From Pedosphaera sp. (lineage in GTDB: Bacteria; Verrucomicrobiota; Verrucomicrobiia; Limisphaerales; SIBH01): a stretch of 64,000 bases of DNA. Below are positions 23,691 to 41,717 of this stretch, piece by piece. Positions within the stretch are counted from its first letter, which is position 1, and the number at the start of each line of letters is the position of its first letter. The stretch spans positions 9,090 to 73,089 of the forward strand of contig JANOQV010000105.1 in the NCBI GenBank assembly GCA_031414955.1. Direction: 5' to 3'. The position numbers were made by a program, and so were the translations under genes. A model generated the notes under the pieces. It did no database searches. It had not been told where the DNA came from and worked only from the letters and a program-made list of their open reading frames with translations.

Positions 23691-24158
23691 TCAAATCACG
23701 AAATCGGCCGCGCTGATGGGTTCCTGTTCCAGTTTACGGGCGCGCTCGCACATCTCCGCCACGGTTACGCGCTCCACCACTTTCACCACGGCGTCACGCG
23801 CTTCCTTCATCACGGAACGGATGGCGCAGCGACCTTCGTCGGGGCAGGAACATTTTTCGTAAAAGCGTTCGCTTACACAACTCACCGGCGCGAGCGCCCC
23901 TTCGACATGGCGGATGACTTCGGCCAGAGTGATCTTTTCCGGCGGCCGGCTCAGGCGATAGCCGCCCGCGACGCCGCGTTTGCTCTCGACTACACGCGCC
24001 GACTTGAGGTCGTTGAGAATCTGTTCGAGGAACCGCTTTGGGATATTCTGCTGCTCGGAGATTTCCTGGATGCGGACCACCGAGTCATCCTCCTGATAAT
24101 CGCGCCCAAGGACGAGCAGGGCGCGCAGGGCGTATTCGCCGCGAGTGGACAGCTTCAT
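23691..24158 (-). CDS. Rrf2-family transcriptional regulator (IscR/CymR-like, Cys-rich cluster-binding segment)
   Basis: MKLSTRGEYALRALL...I.EISE.Q.IP..FLEQIL..L..A..V.S.RG..GGY.L. Cys cluster CVSERFYEKCSCPDEGRC. Divergent from the sulfate-uptake genes. Confidence 0.85.
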   Translation of the reverse strand: MKLSTRGEYALRALLVLGRDYQEDDSVVRIQEISEQQNIPKRFLEQILNDLKSARVVESKRGVAGGYRLSRPPEKITLAEVIRHVEGALAPVSCVSERFYEKCSCPDEGRCAIRSVMKEARDAVVKVVERVTVAEMCERARKLEQEPISAADFVI

Positions 24159-24314
24159 TTGCGGCCAACCGTAGTAATCTACAGTTGTTCAATCAAGTTT
24201 TTGTTCCAGCGTGAGAATTTACCCATTTTCATTCAGGAAAACATTTTTTCCAAACACTATTGACTGAGTAGGGATTAAATTAGTTATCGTCGCCAACAGA
24301 AGAAATTAAGCGAT

Positions 24315-24494
24315 ATGAGCGCACCAGTGAACGAAATTGAAATCTCGCCCGAATGGGTCGGGATTCTGGTCAAGCAGATCGAGTCGCTGCGCTTCGGCGT
24401 GGTGCAAATCACGGTGCATGAATCGCGCGTGGTGCAGATCGAGAAGACCGAGAAAGTGCGCCTCGACCAAAGCGAGCGGAAGGAAGCGCGCTGA
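24315..24494 (+). CDS. yezD: YezD-family small protein (DUF2292)
   Basis: 59-aa ORF below the track cutoff, read directly: MSAPVNEIEISPEWVGILVKQIESLRFGVVQITVHESRVVQIEKTEKVRLDQSERKEAR. The LRFG.VQITVH...V.QIEK.EK.R core is the YezD pattern. First gene of the sulfate locus. Confidence 0.7.
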   Translation: MSAPVNEIEISPEWVGILVKQIESLRFGVVQITVHESRVVQIEKTEKVRLDQSERKEAR

Positions 24495-24585
24495 GATTTT
24501 GCCTACCAGTCGAACTGGCGGCCAACGGACCAAGCAAAAGTGAACCGACCGAACCATCGGAGGAGAGCTGAAATGAAAGCAGAAA

Positions 24586-26025
24586 ATGAAATTAACTCGA
24601 TGGATGGTGGTCGTGGCGCTGTTGAGCGCGCAGACCAGTTACGTGCTGGCTCAGGATCAAAGTGATGAACTGAAGCGGCTGAAACAACAATTGCAGGAAC
24701 TGGATCAAAAAGTGCGAATTCTGGAACGCAGCAACGAACTCGAAGCCGAGGTGGCGGACGCGAAAGCAAAGACGCTGCCGACGGTGAGCCTCGGCGCGGG
24801 CGGGTTGATCGCCACGTCGGGTGACTCAAACTTCGTGATGAAGATTCGCGGCTACGTGCAGGCGGATTCGCGGACGTTCATCGGCGGCGAAGACATTAAA
24901 GGCAACGACACGTTCGGGCTTCGCCGTGTGCGGCCAATCATCGAAGGCTCGGTCTGGAAGGATTTCGAGTATCGCCTCATGCTCGACTTCGGCACCGGCA
25001 TCACGTCGGGCACGGGTAACAATGCTTTTCTCCAGGACGGCTACGTCAACTTCCATCACTGGGACGAAGTGCAGCTTCAGGTGGGCAAGATGAAGGAGCC
25101 AGTGGGGCTGGAGCGGTTGCAGTCGGGCCGCAATCTCCTCTTCATCGAACGCAGTCTGCCGACGCAGCTCGTGCCAAACCGTGACGTGGGCGCGCAATTG
25201 CATGGCAAGCTCTGGGGCAACTTGCTGGCCTACCAGGTCGGCTACTTCAACGGCGTGGAGGATGGCGGCAGCGGCGACATCGAAGTGAGTGATGACGGCA
25301 AGGACGTGGCGGCTCGTTTGTTTGTGCAGCCGTTTGACCGGACGGGCCTTGACCCGCTGAAGAAGTTAGGACTCGGTGTTGCGGTCACACATGGCACGCA
25401 CGTCGGCGCGTTGCGCAATTACGCGACCTCGGGACAACAGACCTGGTTTCGCTGGCGTACCGGCGCGGGCACGACAGCGGCTCCGAATGTGACGGCCGAT
25501 GGGCCGACGGATCGTTTCACGCCGCAGGCTTGGTACTACTGGGGACCTTTTGGCCTTTATGGCGAATATGTGATTACCTCGCATGAAGTAGCCCTCAAAG
25601 CCGGCGCAGCCCCGGGGCAGACGAGCCACGAGACATTCGACAACCGCGCCTGGCAGATTTCGGCCAGCTATTTCCTGACCGGCGAGGAGAATTCCTTCGG
25701 GGTGGTGACGCCGAAGCGTCCGTTTGGCTTTGGCCCGGGCAGCGGCTGGGGCGCATGGGAGATTGCCGCGCGAATTGGGCAGATCTCCGTCGATGACGCG
25801 GTGTTCCGGGATCGCGATGCGGTGGCCGGGCCGGACTTTGCCACGGACAATTCCGCCCGTGAGGCCAAGGAGTGGGGCGTCGGACTGAACTGGCATCTGA
25901 ACTCGAACATCAAGGCGAGCGCGAACTATCTGCACACGGACTTCAAAGGCGGCAGCCGGGCCAAAGGTGAAGTGACGGCGCAGGACGAGGAAGCTATTTT
26001 CGCCCGCGTGCAGTTCGTCTTTTAA
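24586..26025 (+). CDS. OprO/OprP-family anion-selective porin with N-terminal coiled coil
   Basis: 479 aa. Signal peptide, coiled coil (LKRLKQQLQELDQKVRILE), then GYVQADSRTF..D.FGLRRVRPIIEG....FEYRLMLDF, typical of the phosphate-selective porin O/P family. Ends in the aromatic VQFVF. Confidence 0.8.
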   Translation: MKLTRWMVVVALLSAQTSYVLAQDQSDELKRLKQQLQELDQKVRILERSNELEAEVADAKAKTLPTVSLGAGGLIATSGDSNFVMKIRGYVQADSRTFIGGEDIKGNDTFGLRRVRPIIEGSVWKDFEYRLMLDFGTGITSGTGNNAFLQDGYVNFHHWDEVQLQVGKMKEPVGLERLQSGRNLLFIERSLPTQLVPNRDVGAQLHGKLWGNLLAYQVGYFNGVEDGGSGDIEVSDDGKDVAARLFVQPFDRTGLDPLKKLGLGVAVTHGTHVGALRNYATSGQQTWFRWRTGAGTTAAPNVTADGPTDRFTPQAWYYWGPFGLYGEYVITSHEVALKAGAAPGQTSHETFDNRAWQISASYFLTGEENSFGVVTPKRPFGFGPGSGWGAWEIAARIGQISVDDAVFRDRDAVAGPDFATDNSAREAKEWGVGLNWHLNSNIKASANYLHTDFKGGSRAKGEVTAQDEEAIFARVQFVF

Positions 26026-37679: not shown

Positions 37680-38789
37680 ATGAAACAGCTTGCTGTCATC
37701 GCCTTGCTCTTCCTCGGGTGCTCCGCCCGCGTGGCGCACGGCTACGACTTCCTCGGCCTGCGCCCGCTCAAGTGGGAGCCGGGCAGCATCGCGATGGATT
37801 TGCAACTCAACGCCACCCAGCCGCCGGAACCTTTGCGCGATGGCCGCAGTTCGTGGAATTCCGTCGCGCAGTCGGCCCTCGGACTCTGGAACGCGCGCCT
37901 CTCCCAGGTGCGATTCACCACCTTCACGGACAACACGCACGGCCAAGGCAACCGCAAGAACGAGGTCTTTTTCAGCCCCACGATTTACGGGCACGCCTTC
38001 GGACGGGATGTGCTGGCCGTGACCACGGTCTGGCGCGTCGGCCGCGCGCGCGTCGAAGCGGACACCATTTTCAACACTGCCATCGACTGGAACTCCTACC
38101 GGGGCGAACTCGGCGTCAGCAGCATGGATCTGCGCCGCGTGGCCCTCCATGAGTTCGGTCACACGCTCGGGCTGGACCATCCCGATCAGGCCCGGCAGAT
38201 CCGCGTCGCGATCATGAACAGCACCATTTCCGATCTCGACACCCTGGCCACCGACGACATCCGCGGCGTGCGCGGCCTCTATCCGTCGTTTGACCGCTAC
38301 GTGCTCGACCTACAGGTGCTCTCGACCGGACGGGGCGTCATCCTGGCCGATCCCGCGCCCGGCCCGGACGGCAAATATCCCGCCGGCCAGATCGTCACGC
38401 TCACGGCCCGGCCGCGCCGGGGCAACCGCTTCAACTATTGGGACACGACCTCCGACCCCACCCGCCGGACCATCCGGGTGCAAGTGGTCGAGAACGAAAC
38501 CATTCGCGCCGACTTCTCCACCAATCGCGCCCCGCTCATCACGGTGCAGCCCCGGGGGAAACTCGCCTCCTACGCCGAGACGGTGAGCTTCCGCGTGGCC
38601 GCGTTGAACGCCACCGGCGCGAGCCACCAATGGCAGTATAATCATGTCGATCTTCGTAATGCCACGAATGCCTCGCTGGTGTTGTATCTCGTGACTCATG
38701 GCGACTCAGGACTCTACTCCTGCCGCGTCACCACGCCGCGCGGCTCCACGCAGAGCCGGTCCGCGCGGCTGGTTGTGGACGGCTATTGA
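37680..38789 (+). CDS. Matrixin-type (M10) zinc metalloprotease with C-terminal Ig-like domain
   Basis: HEFGHTLGLDH (38148..38180) is the HExxHxxGxxH zincin motif, followed by IMNS (a possible Met-turn). Signal peptide MKQLAVIALLFLGCSA. C-terminal Ig-like segment ..THGDSGLYSCRVTT..ARLVV. The track ORF begins at the TTG at 37674. Confidence 0.8.
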   Translation: MKQLAVIALLFLGCSARVAHGYDFLGLRPLKWEPGSIAMDLQLNATQPPEPLRDGRSSWNSVAQSALGLWNARLSQVRFTTFTDNTHGQGNRKNEVFFSPTIYGHAFGRDVLAVTTVWRVGRARVEADTIFNTAIDWNSYRGELGVSSMDLRRVALHEFGHTLGLDHPDQARQIRVAIMNSTISDLDTLATDDIRGVRGLYPSFDRYVLDLQVLSTGRGVILADPAPGPDGKYPAGQIVTLTARPRRGNRFNYWDTTSDPTRRTIRVQVVENETIRADFSTNRAPLITVQPRGKLASYAETVSFRVAALNATGASHQWQYNHVDLRNATNASLVLYLVTHGDSGLYSCRVTTPRGSTQSRSARLVVDGY

Positions 38790-39336
38790 CCGGCTGCGCG
38801 CCTGGTTGGGAGGCAGGGCTTTTCGCTCCTCCGCGCCGCCCGCTGTCTCCGCCGCTTCCCGTCTCGTGAAACGCTGCGCCGATGGCAGCGTGGTGGAATT
38901 TGGTCGCGGACGCTTCGATGACTGGTGCGTTTACGTGCGCCGGCCCGGAGGCGAACGCCGCGCGCCGCGCGACGTCGATTACTTCTCGGAGTTGAAGCAG
39001 TTGCACGCGCAACACCCCGGGCTGCACGACGACTTCATCACCGTGTTCATGGCGACCGGGAAGGCAATCGATCCCGTCGTCAGCGAACGCATTTCCGAAC
39101 TGGCCGGATCGTATCCCGCCCCCCTGCGCACCGACCTCGAGGTGCTGCTGGCCACGCTATACGCCGCCATGATCGCCGAGGAAAACCGCGCCCACGCCCC
39201 GCTCGGCAAACGCATCAAGCGACTCGGCGTGCATCAGGTGCTGGTGGAAGGAATGCCGGTGGAGGAGGCCGCGAACTTCAGCCGGGGCAAACCGTGGCGG
39301 GAATTGGAGCAGATCTGCGTAGCGCGCGGGTTTTAG
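38698..39336 (+). CDS. Hypothetical protein (start uncertain)
   Basis: The maximal ORF overlaps the matrixin gene by 92 nt. In-frame alternatives are TTG 38806 and GTG 38866 (MKRCADGSVVEFGRGRFDDWCVYV). No recognised domain. Confidence 0.5.
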   Translation: MATQDSTPAASPRRAAPRRAGPRGWLWTAIDRLRAWLGGRAFRSSAPPAVSAASRLVKRCADGSVVEFGRGRFDDWCVYVRRPGGERRAPRDVDYFSELKQLHAQHPGLHDDFITVFMATGKAIDPVVSERISELAGSYPAPLRTDLEVLLATLYAAMIAEENRAHAPLGKRIKRLGVHQVLVEGMPVEEAANFSRGKPWRELEQICVARGF

Positions 39337-39363
39337 CAGGCGTTGGCAGCCGGAGAAAAACAG

Positions 39364-39487
39364 GGTCTCGCGAAGGCGGCAAAGGAGGCGAAGGAGAAAA
39401 TAAAGTCCTCCTTGATTGCGCCCGCAACTGAACGAGTGAAGTTTTCCGACACCGCCTCCTCAATTCCTTCGCCGCCTTCGCGAGACC
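39364..39487. repeat. Imperfect 33-nt inverted repeat between convergent genes
   Basis: GGTCTCGCGAAGGCGGCAAAGGAGGCGAAGGAG (39364..39396) against CTCCTCAATTCCTTCGCCGCCTTCGCGAGACC (39455..39487). Confidence 0.6.
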
Positions 39488-39512: not shown

Positions 39513-39911
39513 CTACTCCAGCGGCAGCCCGAAGTAGAGCCGCAGCCACGGCTCCAGTTCCTCGAACTCGACCGCCTTGCCCGTGGAGACGAGGAACGAG
39601 CGCATGTTGTCCGAGAAACCCGTGCCGGCGAAGACCACCAGGCCGGGGATGGGCCAGGCCTCGATGTCCTTGATCGTGGCCGGGATTTTTTCCTCCGCGC
39701 TGCCGACCACGGATTGGAATTTGCATTCGAGTCCGAGTGTCTTGCGTGACCCGGGATGAATGAGCACCACGTCGATGTGGCGCACCGCGCCCCAGATGCG
39801 GCGGGCCACCCGGACCTGCTCGCGCGCTTCCAGTCCAAGTTCCTGGCCGAGCGCCACCACGGCCTTGGCCAGCCCGTCTCCATTCTGAACTGCAAGCGCG
39901 CGTCCGGCCAT
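39513..39911 (-). CDS. Minimal PD-(D/E)XK-fold nuclease (candidate restriction component)
   Basis: 132 aa. HIDVVLIHPGSRKTLGLECKFQ fits the D...(D/E)xK core, preceded by a GDGLAKAVV..L helix as in Hjc/YraN-like nucleases. Starts 1 nt after the stop of the upstream gene. Confidence 0.5.
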   Translation of the reverse strand: MAGRALAVQNGDGLAKAVVALGQELGLEAREQVRVARRIWGAVRHIDVVLIHPGSRKTLGLECKFQSVVGSAEEKIPATIKDIEAWPIPGLVVFAGTGFSDNMRSFLVSTGKAVEFEELEPWLRLYFGLPLE

Positions 39912-39912
39912 G

Positions 39913-40719
39913 TCAGTCTTCCGCTCTGAAAATATGAAGCTGGTGCCTCATCCCACTTTCGAGCAACCAAATCTCATCCTCTCCGTTAACAACTTCGAGG
40001 ATCGTCTCAACAAATAATTTCTCAAAGAACCAGCGAATCTGTGCTGCCCTGCATTCCGCTTCGTTCATGTCTTTTCCGCTCCCACACGGAAAAATAAACC
40101 TTACAACTGCCGTGGTTTCATCAACCAGGTACCGATTAACGCCAACAGCTTCCGCTTCCACAATTTCCCTTCTGCTCTTGAGGTTTCCAACCTTGAAACG
40201 ACCGCTGACGTGACTAATGGAATACCCGCCGAAAACGTCGGAGATCCACTTGCATAGTCGTTCGAGGAATTCGTCATTGGTTTCGTCTTTCCGAGGAAAC
40301 TGAGCTTCGAGCTTGTCGAATCCGATAGCTTTTAGCCGGGGAACAACTGCGTCTTTGAAGAACAAAGAATCGAGAGCCGACTTAAGCCATTCCTCATTTC
40401 GTAATGGCATGAAGAATTCAAATAGCAGGACATGGTTGTAGCAAATGGCCTGGTATTTGCGCCGGAAGCGGCGCTTCTGCGTGGCAATCTCGTCTCGAAA
40501 TTTCGGCCAAGTGAATTGCCGGAACGCTAGAATTACCCGAAACGTGTTCCCCGGGCGTGGCTCAAGAAGTGACCTGAATTGTTTTGACAGATAAGTGTCG
40601 AAAGAACTCCGACTGAACCCCGTCGCGGCACGAAACTCATCCAGCGTAAACGGCTCCTGAGTGATGCAGCGTTGGTGCAAAAAATCGAACGCTTTGTGAT
40701 GGTCAGATCCGAGTGTCAT
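39913..40719 (-). CDS. Hypothetical 268-aa protein (possible N-terminal winged-helix), middle gene of the methyltransferase operon
   Basis: Clean ORF, visibly more AT-rich than the flanks. ATGA overlap with the methyltransferase stop. N-terminal FTLDEFRAATGFSRSSFDTYLSKQF looks HTH-like. No catalytic motif recognised. Confidence 0.6.
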   Translation of the reverse strand: MTLGSDHHKAFDFLHQRCITQEPFTLDEFRAATGFSRSSFDTYLSKQFRSLLEPRPGNTFRVILAFRQFTWPKFRDEIATQKRRFRRKYQAICYNHVLLFEFFMPLRNEEWLKSALDSLFFKDAVVPRLKAIGFDKLEAQFPRKDETNDEFLERLCKWISDVFGGYSISHVSGRFKVGNLKSRREIVEAEAVGVNRYLVDETTAVVRFIFPCGSGKDMNEAECRAAQIRWFFEKLFVETILEVVNGEDEIWLLESGMRHQLHIFRAED

Positions 40720-41717
40720 ATCGCCTTTTTGCCTTCACCTGTCAGCTCAGGGTGGAGTATTGAGGCCTCCTTCATGCGTTTGATGGCAACCCGAACGTGA
40801 TTTTCATCCAACTCGATACCGATGAAGTCACGGTCCAATTGAACACAAGCGACACCAGACGTTCCCGCGCCCATGAACGGGTCCAGCACAATCGCCCCCT
40901 TGTTTGTAGAGGCTTTGAGGCACAACTCGATAAGCGCGATGGGTTTTTGAGTGGGGTGCTTTCCAAAAACCTTTTCGCGCTTCGGCGGAGCGGCAATTTT
41001 CCAGACTGATTTCATCTGCTTTCCCGCGTTCAGCCGCTTCATGTCCTGGTAGTTGAAAAGATGCTTACTCTTCTCGTTCTTTGCCGCCCAGAGAATCGTC
41101 TCGGTCGAGTGCGTGAAGTAACGGCAGGAGAGGTTCGGCGGCGGGTTGGGTTTTTCCCACGCGATGTCGTTCAGGATTTTCATCCCGAGCTGCTGCATGG
41201 CGTAGCCGACGGAGAAAATGACGTGCTGCGTGCCGGTGACCCAGATCGTGCCGTTGGGCTTGAGCACGCGCTGGCAGCGGCGCAGCCACTCGGTGTTGAA
41301 CTCGTGGTTCAGCTCCGGCCCCTTCGACTTGTCCCAGTCGCCCTTGTCCACCTTGACCATCTTGCCGGCGTGGCAGGTGATGCCGCCGTTGGAGAGGAAG
41401 TAGGGCGGATCGGCGAAGATGCAGTCGAAGCAGCCGTCGGGAAATTTCTCGTGCATGGCGTCGAGCACTTCCAGTGAATTGCCCTGCACCAGCGCGGCCC
41501 CGCCGATCTCGGCGCGCAGATGCGTTCGCACCACCTCGAGAATTTGGGGCCAGCCGGGAAACTGGGCCGGGGTCTTGCCGCGTTTGAGCACGCGCGACGA
41601 TACAGTCGCCGCGCGCGGCGGGTGCAAGAGAAATGAGCGCAGGCGCGCGACCCCAGGCTCATCGGGAGACATATTTTGCCTGGGTTTGAACTTCCTCAGA
41701 ATTTTTCTTCTCGCCAC
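40716..41717 (-). CDS. Beta-class N6-adenine/N4-cytosine DNA methyltransferase
   Basis: Motif IV IFADPPYF precedes HPTQKP and motif I VLDPFMGAGTSGVA, which is the beta-class order. GTG start at 41717, or ATG at 41672. Confidence 0.85.
   Translation of the reverse strand: MARRKILRKFKPRQNMSPDEPGVARLRSFLLHPPRAATVSSRVLKRGKTPAQFPGWPQILEVVRTHLRAEIGGAALVQGNSLEVLDAMHEKFPDGCFDCIFADPPYFLSNGGITCHAGKMVKVDKGDWDKSKGPELNHEFNTEWLRRCQRVLKPNGTIWVTGTQHVIFSVGYAMQQLGMKILNDIAWEKPNPPPNLSCRYFTHSTETILWAAKNEKSKHLFNYQDMKRLNAGKQMKSVWKIAAPPKREKVFGKHPTQKPIALIELCLKASTNKGAIVLDPFMGAGTSGVACVQLDRDFIGIELDENHVRVAIKRMKEASILHPELTGEGKKAI

Follow-up and report, generated by a model that had tools for sequence, protein, structure and literature searches.

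A methylase-nuclease cassette with an accessory gene of an undescribed family in Pedosphaera sp.: chimeric origin and a possible place among restriction-modification systems

A stretch of 64,000 nucleotides from Pedosphaera sp. (assembly GCA_031414955.1, contig JANOQV010000105.1, positions 9,090 to 73,089; hereafter the window) carries three tightly packed minus-strand genes, which encode a DNA methyltransferase, a protein of 268 residues (G2) and a small putative nuclease of 132 residues (G3). The question raised by this locus is what the middle gene does between a methylase and a nuclease. The initial annotation, made from the sequence alone, had offered two answers, either a restriction system whose nuclease and DNA-recognition functions are split over two polypeptides, or a methyltransferase-guarded defence system with a novel middle component. 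We tentatively propose here that the methylase and G3 form a Type II-like restriction-modification (R-M) pair, and that G2 is an accessory protein serving as a methylation-linked sensor or effector, which would act beside the nuclease and not as its subunit.

The three open reading frames (ORFs) encode 333, 268 and 132 residues (Table 1). Direct reading of the sequence placed an ATGA overlap at the methylase/G2 junction (40719..40716) and a one-base gap (39912) that separates the G2 stop codon TGA from the G3 start codon ATG, in agreement with the annotated packing. The motifs IFADPPYF, HPTQKP, FMGAGTSGVA and HIDVV...LECKFQ, which had also been pointed out, were all found in the translations. 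The GC content of the window averages 0.618, with a standard deviation (SD) of 0.029 over 800-nt intervals, and its minimum in all 64 kb is 0.491, about 4.4 SD under the mean, in the interval starting at 39901. G2 has a GC content of 0.488 and a GC content at third codon positions (GC3) of 0.546, compared with 0.657 and 0.835 for G3, and the GC3 of the methylase gene is 0.70-0.98 in codons 1-200 versus 0.56-0.74 in codons 201-334. The AT-richness of G2 and of the methylase 3' third, which had been judged by eye, is therefore borne out by computation as the sharpest trough of the window.

The first gene encodes a beta-class N6-adenine methyltransferase, as had been annotated; its match to the Pfam family N6_N4_Mtase agrees with the presence of catalytic motif IV (DPPY, in IFADPPYF) and of motif I (FxGxG, in FMGAGTSG), which binds S-adenosylmethionine (SAM). 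The best solved relative is CcrM (6pbd), aligned over chain residues 7-267 of 366 only. The window methylase ends where this alignment ends, so that the C-terminal DNA-binding domain of CcrM (about 80 aa) is absent, and with 232 versus 830 bits it does not reach the NCBIfam equivalog cut-off for CcrM. As judged from these alignments, the methylase is a CcrM/HinfI-like catalytic core without the C-terminal domain of CcrM, and this core would point to GANTC as the recognition site. The GTG at 41717 is a doubtful start codon: an ATG in the same frame stands at 41672, the DNA is homologous to that of relatives only from about 41636, and related methylases are 286-321 aa long versus 333 aa from the GTG. 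Translation possibly begins at this ATG instead. PADLOC returned generic MTase_II matches only for this gene, and no match for G2 or G3 (PADLOC-DB v2).

G3 had been read as a PD-(D/E)XK nuclease from its D/ExK core, and the match to PDDEXK_11 (63.2 bits against a curated cut-off of 23.7) agrees with the HIDVV...LECKFQ motif. A second subtype of about 138 aa, 21-28% identical to G3, likewise belongs to PDDEXK_11 (2e-13). In the alignment, R38, D47, K64, Q66, E73 and K75 are invariant in both subtypes, and E62 is present in the subtype of G3 and is replaced by Ser in the 138-aa subtype. PvuII (157 aa) is a minimal dimeric PD-(D/E)XK restriction enzyme, and Cfr10I-type sites are D...SxK...E variants. 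G3 resembles the PvuII-type enzymes in its small size and D...ExK core, and the 138-aa subtype, with Ser at the position of E62 and the invariant E73 downstream, recalls the relocated glutamate of the Cfr10I type. Unlike minimal restriction enzymes, however, PDDEXK_11 is conserved much above the usual level, and a PDB sequence search detected no relation between G3 and solved restriction enzymes. Searches of plasmid and phage collections (tblastn) gave no G3 match, and we found no literature on PDDEXK_11 (PF20472).

Homologues of G3 form at least 2509 clusters, more than 100 of which are at 79-92% identity. In a nuclease-centred sample of 80 metagenome loci, a methylase lies beside the nuclease in 67, mostly directly adjacent, and most of the others end at contig ends. 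The methylase and the nuclease occur without G2 in 57 of the 80 loci, 20 of which have at least 900 nt on both sides, and G2 is present in 10. The partner methylases are of the alpha class (Dam/DpnM-like, PF02086) in 46 loci and of the beta class in 22, and the pairs show both gene orders and orientations. The closest relatives of G3 (86-89% identical) stand in two-gene units, in which a 286-308-aa N6_N4 methylase is followed by a 132-aa nuclease, without G2. Such two-gene modules are near host GC, differing by -2.2 points on average. The traits of a Type II R-M system are seen in the methylase motifs, in the adjacent nuclease with an active-site motif, and in a pair that travels across unrelated genomes. 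Comparison of these loci indicates that methylase and nuclease make up a self-sufficient, widespread R-M-like pair. In one Verrucomicrobia group (L052-L058, e.g. L052:2691-5399), the pair lies directly downstream of dnaA, a position kept over several contigs.

DpnM (1.7e-35) and E. coli Dam come closest to the alpha-class partners, and these have in common with Dam the hairpin sequence LNR..YNGLCR.N..GEFNVPFGRYK, which we take to be the GATC-reading element of Dam. Based on this hairpin, GATC is a reasonable guess for the site of these partners. As in the known Type II systems DpnII (DpnM, DpnA and R.DpnII) and the HinfI/CcrM-type GANTC systems, an N6-methyladenine (m6A) methylase adjoins a PD-(D/E)XK-type nuclease here. 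The resemblance to DpnII extends to the pairing of PDDEXK_11 with a Dam/DpnM-like alpha or a beta methylase, a few loci having both (L035, L049, L135). In contrast to DpnII/MboI or HinfI, the nuclease is an uncharacterised 132-aa PDDEXK_11 protein and there is an extra gene, G2; the window methylase also differs from CcrM in its score and its missing C-terminal domain, as described above. Alpha- and beta-class adenine methylases were both seen around one cassette in L023 as well as in the three loci just named.

G2 belongs to an undescribed, methyltransferase-associated family. The initial annotation had recognised no motif in it beyond a helix-turn-helix (HTH)-like N-terminus; the protein has no match in Pfam, NCBIfam, PADLOC, PHROGs or PDB sequences (the last also searched with the family profile), and nothing matched when Pfam was run on all 40 aligned family members at E values up to 5. 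No G2 match was found in plasmid and phage collections (tblastn), nor did we find a paper describing the methylase/G2/nuclease cassette in the literature. Clustering at 90% identity divides the family into at least 998 clusters, and at 50% identity it has 510 representatives in a set of 1.84 billion proteins. Its members are spread over Verrucomicrobiota, Acidobacteriota, Gamma- and Deltaproteobacteria, Binatia, Myxococcota, Chloroflexia, Spirochaetes and Asgard archaea. One homologue, with 48% identity (L009), comes from the cultured Colwellia psychrerythraea ND2E. In a G2-centred sample of 46 genome loci with a substantial G2 match, an adenine methylase of the alpha or beta class adjoins G2 in 38, a domain of about 100 aa that we call X is found in 29, and the PDDEXK_11 nuclease in 23. 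The Asgard loci hold an alpha methylase and G2 only, and G2 with a methylase but without the nuclease was also found in several bacterial loci; L005, L007, L014, L025 and L044 have G2 but no G3. The trio recurs in several phyla, so that its co-conservation beyond the window holds, but the order of G2 and G3 varies, and G2 is convergent to the methylase-nuclease genes in L006 and L013. From this distribution G2 appears to be an optional add-on to the pair, tracking methyltransferases rather than the nuclease. An early guess that G2 might be an R.HinfI-like enzyme, made from the CcrM/HinfI-like methylase and the similar length, was dropped; it found no match, and G2 also pairs with Dam-like methylases.

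The X domain is a fourth part of the cassette that had been overlooked; it is canonical in relatives and absent from the lineage of the window, which together with L059 and L062 is without X. Its pattern is W..NGY.D....I...W...G..TRRNWW.VLAG...G.P..V.G..FPVL.AA..RQG. X is encoded as a separate protein, as an extension at either end of an alpha or beta methylase, or as a C-terminal extension of G2 (P0286, P0317, P0351), and among the loci sampled it was present only where a G2-type winged-helix protein was present. Neither G2 nor X was seen joined to the nuclease. Nothing in Pfam or the PDB matches X, and a search with the domain returned 38 standalone proteins only and no new architectures. 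The idea that X is the C-terminal domain of CcrM was rejected on sequence grounds: the methylase-X fusion of L002 can be aligned to 6pbd no further than chain residue 261, and the X sequence by itself finds no match.

In 56 of 57 loci the AT content of G2 exceeds that of its flanks, by a median of 8.6 points, which fits a high turnover, and short G2 remnants lie in L047-L051. Several apparent frameshifts, in 'MFD' metagenome-assembled genomes that we took to be long-read assemblies, may be sequencing errors. A 225-241-aa protein with a weak DUF3644 match (7e-4) flanks the cassette in four taxa (Table 1) and is maybe a further optional accessory gene. The contig of L036 was binned as Nanopelagicaceae (Actinobacteria); it has a GC content of 0.31 and a full Asgard-type neighbourhood and is probably mis-binned. 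The Asgard neighbours themselves, an AAA-type ATPase-like protein and three other large proteins, were considered as system parts and read by eye as ordinary synteny.

How G2 came to lie within the pair can be followed in the window. To either side of G2, the DNA of two-gene modules is 76-85% identical to that of the window; this homology breaks at 40846-40926, within the methylase gene, and resumes at 39911-39917, at the start of G3. The GC trough covers the same stretch. At the protein level, methylase residues 60-200 are 89-96% identical to the two-gene modules (L052, L056, L060) and 66-88% to G2-bearing cassettes, residues 201-280 are 68-75% and 56-69% identical, respectively, and for residues 281-333 the relation is reversed, with 35-44% to two-gene modules and 63-64% to G2-bearing cassettes (L059, L077, L003). 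G3 is again 80-89% identical to two-gene modules (86-89% for L052, L056 and L060) and 63-85% to G2-bearing cassettes. These segment identities and DNA breaks show that a G2-bearing segment with its own methylase tail recombined into a resident methylase-nuclease pair. By the alignments, the upstream crossover lies between about 41117 and 40877, and the foreign segment consists of G2 and the last ~50 codons of another methylase gene. The mosaic composition had been taken as the sign of a recombined or recently acquired cassette, and the breakpoints in DNA and protein identity show that the recombination is real.

To see what the added protein might do, we turn to its predicted structure. The AlphaFold2 model of full-length G2 has a predicted local distance difference test score (pLDDT) of 87.2. 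Residues 1-62 have a winged-helix topology, H1-b1-H2-H3-b2-b3 (DSSP of the model, pLDDT 81-97), with helices at 5-20, 26-33 and 37-51 and strands at 24, 52-55 and 59-62. In the recognition helix (SF.TY.SKQF), K46 is invariant and F40, T42, Y43, S45 and Q47 are nearly invariant, and this helix is almost invariant irrespective of the class of the neighbouring methylase. The C-domain modelled alone (aa 86-268) reached a pLDDT of 87.2 and a predicted template modelling score of 0.80. Its residues H170, R174, E201, T202, T203, E247 and E254 are invariant, and D200, D248 and E249 are nearly so. These dense conserved polar residues on the C-domain strands point to a ligand-binding or catalytic site.

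With the full-length model, Foldseek found nothing significant in the PDB. The isolated C-domain matched best the phage SAM lyase Svi3-3 (6znb; E 7.2e-4, probability 1.00, TM score 0.40/0.55 for query/target), followed by GlnK/PII (E 0.01-0.03), two more SAM-lyase entries and one SAM-AMP lyase. In BFVD, small uncharacterised phage proteins match the C-domain with E values of 1e-4 to 1e-3. Membership in the SAM lyases or GlnB-like proteins was not recovered by sequence, either with Pfam in 40 G2 members or with PDB sequences. SAM lyases are GlnB-like trimers with active sites between subunits (PMC7877911). The modelled C-domain resembles this superfamily, which includes Svi3-3, T3 SAMase and GlnB/PII and whose ferredoxin-like alpha/beta sandwich it may share, and G2 stands in a context of SAM-dependent methylation. 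It differs from the phage SAM lyases in a 57-aa helical insert, in the N-terminal winged helix and in the lack of sequence similarity, and, unlike these anti-restriction proteins, G2 is host-encoded beside a methylase. Svi3-3 is a trimer with inter-subunit active sites and the catalytic glutamate E69.

The two domains of G2 are modular. In L081 (L081:1044-2556), a beta methylase and the nuclease are followed by a 366-385-aa protein in which a G2-type winged helix (hhalign probability 89.8%, E 1.8e-6) is joined to a Ser/Thr kinase (Pkinase, 2.5e-34) in place of the GlnB-like domain; X is kept there, its gene lying next to the kinase fusion on the opposite strand. Conversely, the C-domain stands behind unrelated N-termini in P0339 and P0378, and alone, with 196-227 aa, in the Spirochaetes loci L038, L039 and L041 and in L037, with no methylase detected within the locus. 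Based on the kinase swap and the C-domain on other N-termini, G2 reads as a sensor, in which the winged helix acts with X and the methylase, joined to an exchangeable output domain. A conserved 120-164-aa ORF was also seen upstream of the C-domain-only G2 in L038 and L041, immediately upstream in the latter. In the Pgl/BREX type 2 system, the PglX methylase occurs with the PglW Ser/Thr kinase. The L081 variant similarly couples an adenine methylase with a kinase-bearing accessory protein; unlike Pgl/BREX, however, no PglZ, BrxC or PglX homologues are present, the proteins are far smaller, and PADLOC gave no BREX/Pgl match for G2 or G3.

Our tentative proposal for the working of the cassette is as follows. 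First, the beta-class m6A methyltransferase would mark host DNA. Second, G3, with its intact D47...E62-x-K64...E73 site, would cut unmarked DNA; we infer this restriction activity, like the recognition site. Third, the winged helix of G2 would read DNA, possibly the methylation state of the site of the neighbouring methylase, and X would tie G2 to the methylase in most relatives. Finally, the C-domain of G2 would serve as the output, most likely by binding or cleaving SAM or a related adenosyl compound, and G2 would work alongside the nuclease rather than as its subunit. Of the methyltransferase-guarded system put forward in the initial annotation, what stands is the methylase-linked cassette, the PD-(D/E)XK nuclease and the novel middle component.

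Methyl-reading by G2 is speculative. DpnI-type winged-helix readers of m6A and Type IV enzymes with winged-helix fusions also combine a winged helix with a variable effector in the context of adenine methylation and are reported to avoid cognate methylases in their neighbourhood (PMC11037411). G2, unlike them, is almost always beside a methylase, and no sequence link to them was established.

Several points weigh against our proposal. The observed/expected ratios of GATC and GANTC in the window are 0.81 and 0.84; strong avoidance of either site is seen neither there nor in pooled host flanks, which is weak for a restriction system with a 4-5 bp site, and k-mer avoidance in the same material gave no consistent recognition site. 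The lineage of the window is without X, and the proposed tether between G2 and the methylase is therefore absent here. The two-gene modules, host-like in GC and dnaA-adjacent in one verrucomicrobial group, are compatible as well with a domesticated role outside defence. The PD-(D/E)XK fold of G3 is predicted from the Pfam match and motifs. As for G2, the likeness of its modelled C-domain to SAM lyases is at the level of the fold only, with a root-mean-square deviation of 5.9 Å and 10% identity besides the low TM scores, and GlnB-like sandwiches are common.

A bolder form of the idea, which we consider unlikely but worth stating, is that G2 is a relative of the phage SAM lyases that is encoded by the host and connected to a winged helix which reads DNA and, via X, to the methylase. 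In one version, G2 would be a methylation-guarded abortive or interference effector, which binds unmarked foreign DNA and then destroys or sequesters SAM, and the kinase-swapped variant would phosphorylate targets instead. In the other, it would couple reader and writer, as UHRF1-DNMT1 does but in prokaryotes, and let the methylase act only on DNA that is marked already (hemimethylated), and this would lower the rate at which phages escape via accidental methylation.

It is also unlikely, in our judgement slightly more so, that G2 controls the transcription of the cassette, as a large counterpart of the C-proteins that is gated by a ligand. Its winged helix would then sit on an operator and its GlnB-like domain would sense SAM, S-adenosylhomocysteine or an adenine nucleotide, timing the expression of methylase and nuclease. 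R-M systems often carry controllers, a winged helix with a small-molecule-binding fold is the classic architecture of one-component regulators, and the full-length Foldseek matches included IclR-type regulators at low probability. Like the C-proteins, G2 would be a DNA-binding accessory encoded inside an R-M operon, but those are HTH proteins of about 80-100 aa, whereas G2, at 268 aa, has a second domain that is large and conserved, is also found where there is no nuclease, and matches no HTH family. A crude k-mer test, dominated by base composition, found no conserved operator-like motif upstream of G2-bearing operons. The replacement of the C-domain by a kinase in L081 and its presence on unrelated N-termini do not favour a controller either, the X-methylase fusions suggest coupling at the protein-protein or DNA level and not promoter control, and the abundance of invariant acidic, His and Arg residues suggests catalysis.

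The whole cassette might instead be a domesticated epigenetic or repair module, with a Dam/MutH-like strand-discrimination nuclease or a link to replication, in which G2 reads the methyl mark. The host-like GC of the two-gene modules, their place after dnaA in L052-L058, the unusual conservation of the nuclease over more than 100 clusters, the DpnM/Dam-like alpha partners with the Dam hairpin and the mild avoidance of candidate sites all speak for such a role. We nevertheless regard it as quite improbable: nucleases as alike as 89% stand in different genomic surroundings in the window and in L052, occurrence among the phyla is patchy, with methylases of either class and genes in every order, the G2 cassettes are AT-rich against their hosts, and fragmentary G2 remnants lie in L047-L051, all of which is typical of mobile R-M-type genes.

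Still less probable is that G2 is a nuclease whose fold is new, so that one methylase would serve two restriction enzymes, G2 and G3; the metal-dependent site of G2 would then be formed by D200-E201, E247-D248-E249, E254 and H170. Its strict link to methylases of two unrelated classes, the existence of methylase and G2-only pairs and the many invariant acidic residues plus His and Arg would suit such an enzyme, but Foldseek found no nuclease fold with the full-length or the domain model, the best matches being GlnB-like ligand-binding or lyase proteins, and the kinase swap in L081 favours a signalling or effector domain over DNA cutting. The weakest explanation is the split enzyme of the initial annotation, in which G2 and G3 would be the recognition and catalytic subunits of one heteromeric endonuclease, like the large and small subunits of the BspD6I type; the 1-nt gap, the minimal size of G3, the predicted DNA-binding-type winged helix of G2 and the trio conserved in several phyla fit it, but we consider it very improbable because of the co-occurrence statistics, obligatory pairing failing in 57 of 80 G3-homologue loci and in the Asgard and bacterial loci that have G2 but no G3, and the unfixed order of G2 and G3 and the absence of G2-G3 fusions, against those of G2 to X and X to methylases, point the same way.

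The surroundings of the cassette are ordinary. Its neighbours encode a DUF7004 protein, a matrixin-like peptidase and proteins without a Pfam match, and no tRNA gene or integrase was found near it, so that the suspected defence island is a lone cassette. A GC-rich hairpin followed by a run of five U separates the G3 stop codon from the DUF7004 gene, which is convergent to the cassette; the hairpin fold has an energy of -79.7 kcal/mol (z = -5.4), and none of 200 shuffles was as stable. By its sequence it is probably the terminator of the operon, shared or bidirectional. The DUF7004 protein (212 aa, 8e-54; 38698-39336 on the plus strand) was not seen beside related cassettes and is probably unrelated. 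A second low-GC patch of the window, at about 23700-24900 (0.52-0.53), looks ordinary; it holds a 155-aa ORF with an Rrf2/IscR-like N-terminus by eye (23691-24158, minus strand) and the upstream region of a 479-aa ORF that is outer-membrane-porin-like by eye. The sequence GTAC is scarce in the window (45 observed versus 88 expected, ratio 0.51); its ratio is 0.65 in pooled hosts of beta-methylase/nuclease pairs versus 0.87 in alpha-class hosts, and a link to the cassette is conjectural.

Table 1. Positions of the cassette features in the window and of the DUF3644-like gene in related loci, with the evidence for each
Feature	Position	Strand	Evidence
Beta-class N6-adenine DNA methyltransferase, 333 aa	40716..41717	-	PF01555 7e-58; CcrM 6pbd 1.8e-53; PADLOC MTase_II 8e-91; DPPY and FxGxG motifs
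Recombinant lower-GC 3' third of the methylase gene (codons ~201-334)	40716..41117	-	GC3 drop; stop of DNA homology; identities of residues 281-333
G2, undescribed methyltransferase-associated family, 268 aa	39913..40719	-	No family-library match; at least 998 clusters; AlphaFold2 pLDDT 87.2
G2 N-terminal winged helix, predicted (aa ~1-80)	40480..40719	-	DSSP topology; conserved SF.TY.SKQF
G2 C-terminal GlnB/PII-like alpha/beta sandwich, predicted, with ~57-aa helical insert	39916..40464	-	Domain model; Foldseek 6znb
G3, minimal PD-(D/E)XK nuclease (PDDEXK_11), 132 aa, probable restriction component	39513..39911	-	PF20472 2.8e-17; conserved residues
GC-rich hairpin (39364-39487) followed by U5 run (39356-39360)	39356..39487	-	RNA fold
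DUF3644-like flanking protein	L001:3380-4105; L013:8873-9550; L014:8219-8896; L026:3313-4017		

R-M is the most common form of prokaryotic defence, and to our knowledge its accessory genes are few and well catalogued, namely C-proteins, Vsr and second methylases. The cassette adds uncharacterised parts to this repertoire, the G2 family, its companion X domain and a very widespread family of 132-aa nucleases, and adenine methyltransferases of two unrelated classes accompany G2 as well as the nuclease. The clean chimeric junctions in the window show how an accessory module is swapped into a resident R-M pair, through recombination inside its conserved methylase and nuclease genes. The fold link to SAM lyases inside a SAM-dependent system provides a concrete and cheap biochemical hypothesis, and if G2 were indeed a relative of these lyases, either version of that idea would make it a new functional class of R-M accessory, present in Bacteria and Asgard archaea.

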